A stretch of 64,000 nucleotides of DNA from Octopus vulgaris (taxonomy: Eukaryota). The notes beneath the pieces are model-generated. The model searched no databases and had not been told where the DNA came from. It worked only from the letters and a program-made list of their open reading frames with translations. Position numbers and translations under genes: made by a program. Position 1 is the first letter of the stretch, and each line of letters starts with the position of its first letter. Positions 150 through 63,858 of the stretch are shown here, piece after piece. The stretch is taken from NCBI GenBank assembly GCA_951406725.2, contig OX597825.1, positions 72,602,001-72,666,000 on the forward strand, in the 5' to 3' direction.

Positions 150-187
150 TCTTTTACGTTTCGAGCCTACACTCTTCGACAGAAAGA
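150..187 (-). ncRNA. Minimal type I hammerhead ribozyme motif (variant core CUGUCGA) in a (TA)n-adjacent element at ~47-220
   Basis: Reverse complement reads UCUUU-CUGUCGA-A-GAG(UGUAGG)CUC-GAAA-C-GUA-AAAGA: 5-bp stem I, stem II, palindromic ACGU stem III, GUA site. Core A6 is replaced by U. Confidence 0.55.
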
Positions 188-2566
188 TACACAGAAAAAA
201 AACAAGGAGAGAAAAGAAAATGGTGTTAGAACACCTGCAGTGCTAGAAATAAGAGCTAAAACCTCTAATATTATAATTAGACCACATAATTGTCAGTACA
301 CATGTATAGAATCATGTGCCTTAACTACAGCACGAGAGCTTTTTAGCTGTTGCTTCTGGTAATGTAAGTGGTCTGACACCCTAATCGCATTTAGTGACAA
401 TTATAGTTTTCCTTTTAGGTTAAACATTGCACACTGCTGTCTGTATTAATTCATATATATATATATATATATATATATATATATATATATATAATACACC
501 ACGTGTCTTTGTATATGTACTTTTTTGTGGAGGTAAGTAACTTTTAAGCATTTAAGCTGTTGAATTGGTTCCACTTTAAGAGATTTACTTTCTAAATGAT
601 TCGATAAGAGCTAGAGTCGTTTTTTTTTTCTTCTTTGTATTTTCAATACGAGACCAAAATTCTTCTGTCAAATCATTAGAGAAGAAGAGTATTCAATGTT
701 GATTAGGCCCAGCTAATTAGAGTAGAGGAGTCTTTAGTGCTCGTTGGATCAAGAATTTATCGTCAGCTTATTAAAATAAATCCAGGATTTATAATCGGTT
801 CTACGATATTAGATAAGAGAACTGAGTCGAAAGATATCAAGGAACTTGGAACTAAATACCTGCTCATAATTCCTCTTATCTCTCCATGTTTGTAGTTTAA
901 GTTTAACCGGAGTCAACTATAAACATACAATACAGCCGGGTTTATTAAATAGTACACTAGGATATATATGCTGTGTACAGTAATTGACCTTCTGTATCGG
1001 CCATTGCTTTCTTCATCGACAATTTTCTTATGTCTAGGAGAAATAATTTATGTTGATTGCTTTCATATTTATTTATATGATGTATGTGAGTGTATGGCTG
1101 TATATTTGAGCGTGTGTGTGTGTGTGTGTTTAAGGCGATAGCCAGCATGGCTGCAGTCCAATGACTGGTAACATTGTAAACGAATAGAATATACACGATC
1201 ACAAACATCCACGCACGCATGATACACACACATATATATATACATACATATATATATACATATTTACATACACACACACGCGTACATACACATGCATAGA
1301 TAGATAGATAGATAGATAGATAGATAGATAGATAGATAGATAGATAGATAGATAGATAGATAGATAGATAGATAGATATAATGTACTGTGTGTTTGTGTT
1401 AATACATGTATATGCATGTGTGTGCGTGTGTGTATGTCTGTGTCTGTCTGTGTGTGGGTGTGGGCGGATGTGGGTTGGTGGGTGGGTGGGTGTGGGCGGA
1501 TCTGGGTTGGTGTGTGGGTGTGTGAGTGCGTGTGTATGTGTGTAAAATTTATTCTTCAAGAATGTAAAAGGAGACAGGTAGAAGAAAACACAAATACAAT
1601 AACGAAACTAAACGAAACCAAACGAAATCCGTCCCTCACCTGCTTATTTTTGTAAATACAGAATTGTTTATGGAACACAGACAGAAGATTTTGACTATTC
1701 TCAATTAGCTTAAAACGCCTATATATCTTGCAGTCAGTATAATTGAATGGAATTCAATATGTCATTCAGATAATACTAAGCTTGAAACATAAGTCGATTC
1801 ACTATCCTCAAACCTTATTTCTGTAAGCGGATTAATAAAGAGAAGGTCTATTGTTGATACAGTTTGATAGATATCACTTAATACAAAGCTTTGTCTTGCC
1901 TTTGTAATGTTTATGCCCACTATTTTATTTTTATTATATTATAGTCAAAGGAATAACTATTTCAATTAATCTATTCTGTATATTGTTTGTGAGTTTTCTC
2001 TCTATATTTATTCTGTTGGCTATAATATCAGTTAGTTAACGGTTTGAGCTTATTATTTAGATATTCATATTGCTAGCTTTCGATAAGAGAAAAACGTTTG
2101 TTATATTCAATACAATGGCTATAATGAAAAATATTTCATCTGTCTGTCTTCGCTTGTTGCTGTAAGCAGTAAGCTAGTGCTAACTTTCCCAGCCAGTCGA
2201 CTTCGCTTTCAGTGTTCAGCTTATTATTTCTACGAAACATTTTCACTTCACTTTATAAGAGCGGGTTGTTTTGGAGTTTTGGGGGATATTTGTTGTTTTT
2301 TTTTTCTTTGTCTAATTACAAATTCATATTTATTGTTATTATCGCTGCTGCTGCTTTTTGTCTTTGTTACTTTCCATCGTTCTAGTTCTATAACTCTCAA
2401 GCCAAACTTCATATATATATATATATATATATATAATACACATATCCATATATTCATGTATATATCTACACATATATATATATATATATATATATATATA
2501 TATACATATAAATATATATATATATATATATATATATATATATATATATATATATATATATATATA

Positions 2567-2772
2567 GTTAATCCAAACAAGAAAACACAGAAAAAAACAC
2601 ACCAACGCGAGGACGTGGAACAATTAAAGTATTATTTGATGCTCAGGAAAGAAGGGAAGGAGGGTCTAACGTTTCGAGAGGAGCTCTTCGTCGGAAACAA
2701 GGAGAAGGAAAGATCCCGAGAAGGGAAGACAGAGGAAAAAAATATTTTTGCTGGTGGTGCTCAAGAGATCAC
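2567..2772 (-). mobile_element. ~200-bp hammerhead-bearing, (TA)n-anchored element (same family as 62690-62896 and 63664-63858), with degenerate ribozyme at 2664-2698
   Basis: Clear similarity to the two copies near 63 kb. The 3' end GGATTAAC is fused to (TA)n and the core is mutated to CCGACGA. Confidence 0.7.
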
Positions 2773-2790
2773 ATACATACATATATATAT

Positions 2791-3085
2791 GCGTGGCTTA
2801 GTGGTTAGGGCATTCGGCTCATGATCGTAAGGTTGTGAGTTCGATTCCCGGCGACGCGTTGTGTCCTTGCTCCAGTCCACTCAGCTGGCAAAAATGAGTA
2901 TTACCTGTATTTCAAAAGGGCCAGCCTTGTCACACTCTGTGTTACGCTGAATCTCCTTGCGAACTACGTTAAGGGTACAGGTGTCTGTGGAGTGCTCAAC
3001 CACTTGTACTTTAATTTCACGAGCAAGCTGTTCCGTTGATCGTGTCACCTGGGTCACTCGTCATCGTAACCGACGGAGTGCTCCC
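2791..3085 (+). mobile_element. tRNA-derived SINE, family A/B-type head with family A tail
   Basis: A box TGGCTTAGTGG and B box GTTCGATTCC. The 3' part matches the copies at 34520 and 57692 and ends CGTAACCGACGGAGTGCT. Confidence 0.85.
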
Positions 3086-3827
3086 ATATAAAGTAAAATG
3101 GAGAAAAATTGTTAAAATTGTTAAAATGTTTTCTCCTATATCGAAAATAATGGAAACCTCCATAGAGACAACTGGAATTTGAGAAGTATAAGGTACGAAT
3201 ATCGAACGAGAACGAACGATGAACACTAGTACATATACATGTATAGAACGTCCAATATCATTAATCCATATAGAGCTAAACTGGTGTACGTTTGGATAGA
3301 ATTTATCCCTAGGAAAGAACAATCTCTTTCTAATCAAACTTATATGTATATAAATATACATACACACACACACACACACACATATATATATGTGTATGTG
3401 TGTGTGTGTGTGTGTGTGTGTGTGTGTGTGTGTGTGTGTGTGTGTGTGTGTGTCCACACTCCCACAAAAATCTATACAAACACAGGCCATAGCATGGCTG
3501 CATTGTTAGGAAGCTTCACGATCACGCGGTTACCTGTCGTAGAACGAAGAATATACTTTTGCCAGTACGTGTAATATCAGGTGTAACATTACACTTGCAA
3601 TTAATTGTTAATTAAGTACATTTGTTATAGATAACATATTCGTAACGCAACTATATAAATGAGAATTCTTTTTATTTTATTTTATTTTCTAATTTTCAAT
3701 TAATTGAATAAGCATTTTTATCTTAAAAATTAATATCCACTTCATTATTTTATGTAAGCAACATGAATTTGAAAAAAATGAAATATAATTATAATTATCA
3801 TACTTGTCTAACATTACCCCCAGTGTC

Positions 3828-62689: not shown

Positions 62690-62896
62690 GTGACCGCGTG
62701 TGTACCGTTGGCGATTTTTTTTCCTCCGTCTTCTCTTCTCTGAATCTTTCCTTTTCCTATGTTTCTGACGAAGAGCTCCGCTCGAAACGTTAAACTCTCC
62801 TTCTTCCCTTCCTTCCTGAGCGTCCAATAATACTATATTTGTTCCACGTCCTCGCGTTGTTGTGTTTTCTCTTTGTGTTTTCATGTTTGGATTAAC
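62690..62896 (+). mobile_element. ~200-bp hammerhead-bearing element ending in (TA)n
   Basis: Three copies in the window, all with GGATTAAC next to (TA)n. Confidence 0.75.
62761..62795 (+). ncRNA. Minimal (35-nt) type I hammerhead ribozyme
   Basis: GUUU-CUGACGA-A-GAGC(UCC)GCUC-GAAA-C-GUU-AAAC: 4-bp stem I, 4-bp stem II, palindromic ACGU stem III that could form only in a dimer. Confidence 0.75.
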
Positions 62897-63489
62897 TATA
62901 TATATATATATATATATATATATATATATATATATATATATATATATATATATATATATATATATATATATATATATATATTGTGTGTGTGTGTGTGTGT
63001 GTGTGTGTGTGTGTGTGTGTGTGTGTAAATCGTAAGGGGTTATTTCAAAAGGTTTACTGGTTTGTTCTCAGTTAAATTATTCAGAATAGGTTATTCAACA
63101 GTTAATATATAAATCCAATAATATTCTCATCAGACAAGAATTTAGGGTTGCAATTGCAGTGATTACAAATCGGTGCAGTTGAAACACGTGTAGGTTTATG
63201 TTACCCCATACTACTCATTTTACCAAATAATAGCCCATTAATAATATGGGCTATTATTATAATAATATGGCTATTATTTTATCAAATAATAGCCATATTA
63301 TCAAACAATGGTCAATAATGGGCTCCCACTAAGGAGCCCATTATTGATTTTTATTGAAAGCCAATTAGTCTATAATTGAACTGGATGTTAGTTTAATATG
63401 TATGCAAAGTTTCTTCAAGATTAGTTTACTGGTGTAGGCAGCAAAATGGTAACACATACACACACATACACATATATATATATACATAG

Positions 63490-63586
63490 ATACGACGGGC
63501 TTCTTTCAGTTTCCGTCTACCAAATCCACTCGCAAGGCTTTGGTCGGCCCGAGGCTATAGTAGAAGACACTTGCCCAAGGTGCCAT
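63490..63586 (-). mobile_element. SINE family D fragment
   Basis: CGACGGGCTTCTTTCAGTTTCCGTCTACCAAATCC...ACTTGCCCAAGGTGCCA. Confidence 0.85.
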
Positions 63587-63663
63587 GTGTGTATATATAT
63601 ACATATATATATATATATATATATATATATATATATATATATATATATATATATATATATAAA

Positions 63664-63858
63664 GTTAATCCAGACATGAAAACACAACAGCGCGAGGACG
63701 TGGAACAAGTATAGTATAATTGGACGCTCAGGAAACAAGGAAAGAAGGACGGTTTAACGTTTCGAGCGGAGCTCTTCGTCAGAAACATAGGAAAAGGAAA
63801 GATCCAAAGAAGGGATGACGGAGGAAAAACATCGCCAACGGTACACACGCGATCACAT
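63664..63858 (-). mobile_element. ~200-bp hammerhead-bearing element ending in (TA)n
   Basis: Inverted homolog of 62690-62896. Confidence 0.75.
63752..63786 (-). ncRNA. Minimal type I hammerhead ribozyme
   Basis: Exact reverse complement of 62761-62795, while the flanks differ. Confidence 0.75.

Follow-up and report, generated by a model that had tools for sequence, protein, structure and literature searches.

Hammerhead motifs and the stubs that carry them

The stretch analysed here (the window) comprises 64,000 nucleotides (64 kb) of Octopus vulgaris DNA and contains 11 hammerhead motifs, which occupy nine loci, two of them inverted pairs, and fall into five sequence groups (Table 1). All 11 were recovered at the positions and on the strands given in an earlier note on this DNA. 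The core (CUGANGA, GAAA and NUH, with stems I and II) is intact in nine of them, and single changes are found in motif 150 (A6U) and motif 2664 (U4C). The earlier note had recorded both substitutions, but the U4C at 2664 is not decay; it is a major variant that makes up 46-50% of the family A depth.

Table 1. Hammerhead-bearing stubs, arms of the inverted pairs and an adjoining repeat in the window
Feature	Positions	Strand	Details
Group B stub, distant relative of family A	46..221	-	motif 150-187, core A6U; 3' end at (TA)22
Imperfect inverted repeat (67%), 5' of the 150 motif	222..380	.	region extends to TA tract at 454
Family A copy	2567..2772	-	motif 2664-2698, U4C; 3' end at (TA)27; own variant 5' segment
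Group C stub	5322..5700	-	motif 5461-5529, 8-nt palindromic stem III; 3' end at (TA)29; 5' limit approximate
Group D stub	41786..42098	+	5' fold-back 41786-41906 (80%); motif 41950-42017; 3' end at (TA)18
Pair 1 left arm, group C, tail-less	52577..52846	-	motif 52697-52782, 12-nt palindromic stem III; degenerate TA run at end
Pair 1 right arm	52847..53279	+	57-nt 5' spacer; motif 52968-53053; tail of ~100 nt, 53180-53279; 3' end at (TA)38
Pair 2 left arm, family E (Hydra-like), tail-less	53612..53695	-	motif 53645-53682; adjoins (TA)46
Pair 2 right arm, family E	53699..53853	+	motif 53712-53749; 71-nt tail 53783-53853; adjoins (TA)17
Group F stub	54747..55040	-	motif 54788-54837; ends at (TA)4; weak 5' fold-back 54923-55036
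Family A copy	62688..62896	+	motif 62761-62795; predicted cut after 62791; 3' end at (TA)42
Family A copy	63662..63858	-	motif 63752-63786; 3' end at (TA)29; 5' end as in the 62688 copy

A strict type I descriptor gave three matches, compared with a mean of 0.05 (maximum 1) in 100 locally dinucleotide-shuffled windows. The relaxed descriptor, which tolerates bulges and the 9a insertion and was tuned once the motifs were known, matched exactly the nine intact-core motifs, against a shuffle mean of 0.49 (maximum 3; 200 shuffles). With one core change allowed, 25 matches were obtained (shuffle mean 10.8, maximum 20, 50 shuffles), including motifs 150 and 2664, both of which are supported by homology to family A. 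Further one-mismatch motifs (e.g. 9963, 24970, 26539, 35734 and 55673) occur at about the shuffle rate without a palindromic stem III and were rejected. The frequency of intact motifs clearly differs from that in shuffled sequence, and the reading of these motifs as hammerhead-shaped is upheld: they are real. The motifs are clustered: five lie between 52.7 and 54.8 kb, and the interval from 5.5 to 41.9 kb contains none. The previously proposed density of one per 6 kb therefore holds as a window average but not as an even spacing of what are nine loci. The stubs cover about 4.6% of the window.

The stem III palindrome is perfect in 8 of the 11 motifs, in agreement with the previous statement that it is self-complementary in most of them; two further motifs match at 8 of 9 positions and one at 8 of 11. 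Stem III is predicted to form a helix of 4-12 bp in a dimer and of 0-4 bp in a monomer, beyond or including the A-U pair. A compensatory G-C to C-G swap in stem I between family A and motif 150, and a group C palindrome that is kept at lengths of 8 and 12 nt, were each seen in few sequences. At position 17 of family A, the contigs of run X15 contain A (5.4%) and C (5.2%), and no G is present among the variants listed for four runs, which is H-only variation in few sequences. Two stem I variants of family A would retain a wobble pair. Stem II comprises 2 bp in family E and only 1 bp in the group F motif, where stem I has 6-7 bp. The group C stub at 5322 shares about 63% identity with the right arm of pair 1, spacer included; a frame starting at an ATG in the group C hammerhead core was dismissed, since by eye it closes within about 30 codons. 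At 5461 and 54788 the 5' fold-back is weak (matched by 6% and 3.5% of the background, respectively) and such a structure was absent when looked for in family A; therefore we do not claim a general rule of 5' hairpins.

No remnant of a reverse transcriptase (RT) or GIY-YIG domain was detected in the window. In a Pfam search of 150 of the 346 window frames only a Mos1 HTH exceeded its cut-off, and 20 proteins of the type found in Penelope-like elements (PLEs) gave no match to the window below E=0.2. With no frame for RT plus GIY-YIG detected by these searches, the stubs in the window do not qualify as autonomous PLEs. Rfam delivered 0 matches in the window at the gathering score; an E-value scan contained no hammerhead among the 150 of 500 matches listed, where microRNA models on microsatellites dominate, and three scans directed at families A, C and E gave no hammerhead family. 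The expectation that standard annotation misses these motifs is thereby supported for Rfam, and annotation consequently undercounts them. Literature searches on hammerheads and Penelope in octopus and cephalopods turned up no account of the families; Repbase, Dfam, the Zenodo octopus library and the supplement of Cervera & de la Pena 2020 may contain them.

Inverted pairs, Hydra-type relatives and family A

At two of the loci the motifs are arranged head to head, and only one arm of each pair carries an additional tail. An inverted pair with a one-sided tail is a published signature of PLE insertion, and motif pairs on opposite strands as well as single motifs of truncated PLEs have been reported (Cervera & de la Pena 2014, PMC4209133). 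Pair 2 (motifs 53645 and 53712) belongs to family E, which has stems I and III and a tail hairpin in common with the ends of Hydra-clade PLEs. Within this clade, elements inserting into (TA)n with a hammerhead near the 3' end have been described, one of them from Octopus (Hydra-1_Obim) (Craig et al. 2021, PMC8557442). The tail of the right arm begins with a hairpin at 53788-53811, for which Hydra-type tails have a homologue; the hairpin is conserved and shows compensatory changes. The similarity of the family E tail was reached in 4 of 5000 shuffles against relative L083 and in 568 of 5000 against L013, that is, one of two relative tails is matched. Pair 2 is itself enclosed by an element with 99-nt inverted ends.

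A search with a family-E-type pattern revealed 120 metagenome loci; the pattern was absent from viral contigs. The 105 distinct events among these relatives comprise 28 inverted, 31 solo truncated and 12 extending 5', with 34 at contig ends. Of the inverted events, 21 combine a short arm with a tailed one, three have two short arms and four are unscorable, so that 21 of 24 scorable events are tail-asymmetric. Nine loci match the 703-aa protein P0003, and at L043 the motif, tail and TA run directly precede a frame of 707 aa that contains YRDDG and YIG motifs. The identity of these proteins as RT-endonucleases (RT-EN) was assigned from such motifs and by-eye comparison with the Hydra alignment of Craig et al. 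2021; Pfam did not recognise them. A linked frame of the kind proposed for follow-up in the earlier note was found at a relative locus, and none was detected within the window. Since the stubs of the Hydra-type relatives pass gradually into longer copies reaching into the RT-endonuclease gene, family E would appear to fit 5'-truncated or inverted insertion products better than a non-autonomous element.

Groups A/B, C, D and F had no match in the Hydra-type loci, and their PLE origin is for this reason deduced entirely from anatomy. A loose group C pattern found 56 viral loci, which were taken as chance matches given no homology beyond 16-25 nt.

Family A is a dispersed unit of about 208 nt, and the 5' end of the copy at 62688 is common to many genomic copies. 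Its motif was not found in collections of viral, metagenome and prokaryote sequences. The family is probably very abundant, with 5x10^3-2x10^5 copies by rough inference. Because of this fixed 5' end, the term non-autonomous retroelement, which the earlier note had applied to all stubs, is plausible for family A; the other groups read better as truncated insertion products. The fixed end is contrary to what random 5' truncation predicts. There is about an even chance that family A derives from its own SINE-like transcript with a defined start, and we give the same weight to a strong-stop copy of an autonomous element, running from start site to priming site.

TA runs and the origin of the stubs

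In all 11 motifs a run of (TA)4 or longer is reached 37-234 nt past the predicted cut, and in nine it has at least 17 units. A run of (TA)8 or longer lies within 150 nt downstream of 8 of the 11 motifs, whereas this holds for 9.3% of unmasked positions and for none of 19 SINE-like motif copies. That the host elements end at (TA)n was therefore correctly observed. The distance from predicted cut to element end is 87-144 nt in 7 of 11 cases. Target-site duplications are unreadable within TA runs. Simple repeats, which make up 28.6% of the window and dominated a general repeat search of it, would suit the alternative that the runs are tails, produced or expanded by the elements through slippage from AT-rich ends, and not prior targets. 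Homologous copies sharing an end point followed by TA also speak for this, as do Hydra-type relatives that mostly finish in AT-rich DNA instead of long TA runs. However, long TA runs flank pair 2 on both sides, TA-rich DNA also precedes family A copies, and Hydra and Naiad PLEs described in the literature, among them some from cephalopods, are recorded as preferring (TA)n; we regard tails of this kind as unlikely.

The stubs are likely terminal-repeat (pLTR) ends from several families of Penelope-like retroelements, inserted by a GIY-YIG/reverse-transcriptase protein that is encoded elsewhere in the genome. The Penelope-like link suggested earlier is sustained by the homology of family E to RT-EN-linked ends and by the one-sided tails. 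By analogy with PLE biochemistry (Frangieh et al. 2024, PMC11167929), the protein would cut both strands of AT-rich DNA, and reverse transcription would be primed internally, 3' of the hammerhead, at either of two positions; according to figures of that study, priming takes place some 85-92 nt beyond the cut. The choice of priming site may decide between a short arm and an arm plus tail, and two early-stopped copies joined 5' to 5' would give an inverted pair. For family A, a short RNA with a defined start would be the likely source. Self-cutting of the motifs is predicted from sequence; the ribozymes are expected to cut weakly, mostly as dimers or helped by protein, which probably makes the majority of copies inert passengers. 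For the perfect inverted pairs, a read-through transcript is predicted to form one long hairpin that would bury the ribozyme.

The earlier note also drew a link to retrozymes, whose non-LTR monomers would arise when tandem arrays are transcribed, self-cleaved, circularised and reverse-transcribed into unit-length copies. The unit of about 210-400 nt, the low GC content, the missing frame and the fixed ends of family A all fit this origin, and monomer fractions from 0 to 1 have been reported (Li et al. 2026, bioRxiv 10.64898/2026.07.22.740005). A head-to-tail junction of family A (62874/62876 to 62698) was detected as well, but only in single low-depth contigs of X1 and X16, against a summed depth of 10^5-10^6. 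There are no tandem copies at the nine loci, and joints in four runs are confined to single contigs, although short contigs can hide arrays. The 5' loose ends of family A are heterogeneous (agreement about 0.5) and TA-like, and the inverted pairs with one-sided tails point to PLEs. The retrozyme link is thus not sustained, and we judge such an origin quite improbable. Chance, or a non-retroelement source such as hammerhead-like parts of DNA-transposon fold-backs (MITEs), is scarcely credible: the fold-backs of several stubs, the inverted ends enclosing pair 2, the lack of Rfam matches and the post hoc tuning of the relaxed descriptor agree with it, but the strict-descriptor excess, apparent covariation between related groups and in the tail hairpin, arms differing by a one-sided tail and above all the homology of family E to ends joined to RT-EN genes, a Hydra-type link that largely refutes it, do not.

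Comparison with known elements and significance

With the pLTR hammerheads of metazoan PLEs (PMC4209133), the motifs described here share an extra nucleotide after A9, a G10.1-C11.1 pair in most cases, a small palindromic helix III, the presence of several families per genome, and mostly single motifs with close pairs on opposite strands. They differ from them by U4C in about half of the family A depth and by the long stem II of groups C and D, which has an AU-rich hairpin at its apex. The published counts are about 2,000 motifs in Schistosoma and about 9,000 in Xenopus, to be compared with the rough estimate for family A given above. Hydra-clade PLEs (PMC8557442; Hydra-2_Amil, Hydra-1_Obim, Penelope-13_HM) have in common with the stubs the (TA)n preference, the hammerhead near the 3' end, in families E and F an odd-centred palindrome in stem III, and inverted 5'-truncated copies with a one-sided tail. 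In Hydra-2_Amil, stem I and the triplet are the same as in family E and stem III is near-identical, and ends of the Hydra-2_Amil type also share the tail hairpin of family E; the stem III motif of Hydra-1_Obim was not found in the window. In contrast to these elements, the stubs are without an ORF, family E has the short stem II noted above, and tails measure 70-100 nt instead of 30-40.

The green anole element Poseidon PAc (Frangieh et al. 2024, PMC11167929) likewise ends about 90-110 nt past the cut, with two alternative 3' ends and AT-rich targets; its ORF starts in the hammerhead, whereas by eye no conserved frame starts there in the stubs. Non-LTR retrozymes (Cervera & de la Pena 2020, PMC7229834; Li et al. 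2026) are also protein-less, 200-400 nt long and equipped with a type I hammerhead, with a probable pLTR origin, but they are defined by tandem units and circular RNA, whereas the stubs are dispersed singles or inverted pairs with rare tandem junctions. The families seem to be new; the arrangement is already known but apparently unusually abundant here.

The role of the hammerhead in PLEs has been called unclear (Craig et al. 2021, PMC8557442), and insertion in vitro did not require cleavage (Frangieh et al. 2024, PMC11167929). With several families, frequent natural core variants and stem III palindromes of 4-12 nt, the stubs form a good natural test set for this question. The inverted pairs, if read through, would yield long double-stranded RNA. 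More speculatively, and with considerable doubt, family A could be a self-propagating, fixed-ended 208-nt SINE-like parasite of the Penelope machinery, with about 10^5 copies of which roughly half stem from detuned U4C masters. If true, family A would be among the densest ribozyme families in an animal genome, and the spread of U4 versus U4C lineages would bear on whether hammerhead cleavage aids or hampers Penelope-type retrotransposition.

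Hammerhead motifs and their groups

All 11 hammerhead motifs of the earlier note are present where it had placed them. The window has a GC content of 35%; long TA runs occur in it by the dozen, and simple repeats make up 28.6%. Their frequency, which was to be compared with shuffled sequence, exceeds it: a strict type I descriptor gave three matches versus a mean of 0.05 in shuffles, and a relaxed descriptor, tuned after the motifs had been seen, matched only the nine intact-core motifs, with 200 shuffles averaging 0.49 matches and never exceeding 3. Motifs 150 and 2664 (motifs are named by their start) carry one core change each, and since a scan allowing such changes yields 25 matches versus a mean of 10.8, the scan alone cannot separate these two from chance. 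They were confirmed through sequence alignment to family A. Rfam gave zero gathering matches on the window, and three targeted scans likewise failed to match any hammerhead model.

The motifs represent nine loci in five groups (see table). A stem I pair is swapped between A and B (G-C to C-G), and within group C motif 5461 has a stem III palindrome of 8 nt and pair 1 one of 12 nt, so related groups keep the fold while the letters differ. Of the 11 motifs, eight have a perfectly palindromic stem III. Pairing within a monomer would leave A and D with hardly any helix III and would allow C (pair 1) and F 4 bp. A similar AU-rich apical hairpin is common to groups C and D. Just 3′ of the hammerhead, both group C subfamilies carry a 31-nt segment of GT...AG form that includes a pyrimidine tract, possibly the splice acceptor of an intron in the terminal repeat (pLTR) of a Penelope-like element (PLE).

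The stubs had been described as protein-less, and in the longest 150 of 346 frames the sole Pfam match is a mariner helix-turn-helix. The suggested linked Penelope RT/GIY-YIG frame did not appear: 20 PLE-type proteins gave no match in the window below E=0.2.

Features in the window and in one metagenome contig
Feature	Position	Remark
Group A	2664, 62761, 63752	86-92% mutual identity; B (150) a distant relative
Group C	5461, pair 1 (52697/52968)	identity ~63%
Group D	41950	
Group E	pair 2 (53645/53712)	
Group F	54788	
GT...AG stretch	53059-53089 (+), ~5419-5449 (-)	group C
Pair 1 apical stem II loop	52732-52753, 52998-53019	inverted between arms, a hairpin micro-inversion
14-nt motif	243-256, 5376-5389, 52618-52631, 53119-53132	looser copy near 54690
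Unclassified element	52085-52550	ends at TA run also used by pair 1 left arm; no Rfam match
Element around pair 2	53357-54222	99-nt inverted ends, 98% identical
Palindrome	63858-63918	23 nt around (TA)7, adjoining a family A copy at its 5′ end
Mos1 HTH	45605-45772	Pfam, E=1e-15
Decayed mariner-type transposons	45536-46650, 51100-51850	
Tandem repeat	14790-15330	unit ~43 nt, ~12 copies, without hammerhead motif
Small element	58734-58863	inverted ends, within TA run
L043 (metagenome contig)	307-470, 528-2651	animal-host Hydra-type PLE

Element ends, TA runs and inverted pairs

The earlier note had most stubs ending at (TA)n; all 11 motifs run toward a TA run, with (TA)4 or longer starting 37-234 nt past the predicted cut and 17 units or more in nine of them. 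(TA)8 or longer lies within 150 nt of 8 of 11 motifs, versus 9.3% of background positions and none of 19 SINE-like copies; both arms of the two pairs are counted here and are not independent, so that a binomial P is too small.

Both pairs are arranged head to head (pair 1 with arms 96% alike and a 57-nt spacer, pair 2 with 84-nt perfect arms and a 3-nt loop), with an extra 70-100 nt on one arm only, and for each the predicted fold is one long hairpin. Pair 2 is nested in an element that is probably a Tc1/mariner-type MITE with a microsatellite middle. A 14-nt motif occurs four times versus 0.12 expected, ~75 nt 3′ of the group C cut and also inside an inverted repeat 5′ of motif 150; region 222-453 may be an additional, older inverted pair of ends.

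Relation to Penelope-like elements

The motifs are real, the kind of element is already known and the families are new; our search, which covered published papers, found no description of them, and repeat libraries may list them. Such motifs are already reported from PLE repeats, where most stand alone as remnants of truncated elements and some form pairs on opposite strands at a distance of 100-700 bp (Cervera & de la Pena 2014, PMC4209133), retrozymes are derived from pLTRs (Li et al. 2026, bioRxiv 10.64898/2026.07.22.740005), and axolotl has 126,247 motifs (Cervera 2020, PMC7229834). From its SINEs and its composition, the host is probably an octopus; if so, the stubs fit the PLE coverage of 6.83% in 190 families given for O. 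vulgaris (Bonar 2026, whose supplement makes no mention of ribozymes) and the 235 Rfam hammerheads of the giant squid paper.

Craig 2021 (PMC8557442) lists (TA)n as the insertion site of Hydra-clade PLEs, among them Hydra-1_Obim from Octopus and Hydra-2_Amil, and places their hammerhead close to the 3′ end. Hydra-2_Amil agrees with family E in stem I, in the cleavage triplet and, the central base excepted, in stem III. This motif type was found at at least 120 metagenome loci (L001-L120), which are animal-host Hydra-type PLEs. The matches listed comprise 105 distinct events: 28 inverted pairs (21 short plus tail, 3 short plus short, 4 unscorable), 31 solo truncated, 12 extending 5′ and 34 at contig ends. 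Many contigs end immediately 5′ of the hammerhead, which is where assemblies would stop if fold-back pairs disrupted them. Upstream, the sequence runs into a C-terminus that the 703-aa protein P0003 shares exactly; this protein matches nine of the loci listed. At L043, motif, tail and TA run are followed by a 707-aa frame carrying YRDDG and YIG motifs. Pfam named none of these proteins, full-length ones included; they were assigned as reverse transcriptase-endonucleases by eye against the Hydra alignment of Craig 2021. The pair 2 tail starts with a hairpin alignable to that of its relatives, with compensatory changes. In shuffles of 5000 each, the similarity of the tail to locus L083 was equalled 4 times and that to L013 568 times, and none of six control ends was significant. 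No real counterpart of groups A/B, C, D or F turned up among the Hydra-type loci listed.

By analogy, we infer that the stubs would be made by an autonomous PLE protein. Frangieh 2024 (PMC11167929) showed for one PLE protein that it makes cuts in both strands where DNA is AT-rich and begins reverse transcription at two internal positions, which set the tail; the hammerhead of that element requires protein and is dispensable for insertion. Figures of the same study place priming ~85-92 nt 3′ of the cut. In the window, 7 of 11 ends lie 87-144 nt past the predicted cut. Solo ends would result where reverse transcription stops early, and tail-asymmetric inverted pairs where two products are joined by their 5′ ends.

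Family A across the genome

Four contig runs, of 19 runs from three organisms with part of the stretch, were aligned to 62681-62902 and gave 26,832, 5,741, 6,879 and 11,337 contigs. In all four, loose ends accumulate at 62687/62688 and flanks are heterogeneous and TA-rich; thus the 5′ end is fixed and copies are dispersed. A start of this kind calls for a short RNA whose 5′ end is defined, which might be the family's own transcript or a strong-stop copy. Many copies have a few extra 5′ letters before 62688, with a consensus agreement of only ~0.5; these resemble an initiator element and equally a short stretch of the 3′ end in inverted orientation. Head-to-tail joints occur in single contigs only.

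Copy number spans roughly 5x10^3-2x10^5, estimated by dividing by the depth seen in long contigs, both uncorrected and corrected for 31-fold overlap, summed depth itself not being a copy number. With three copies in its 64 kb, the window would favour the top of this range, provided that it is typical. At position 17, A and C variants are listed and G is not. The core change U4C makes up 46-50% of depth in all four runs; according to Perreault 2011, it reduces in vitro activity but still allows viroid infectivity. What stands out is the likely abundance, a family A with fixed ends and its common U4C core.
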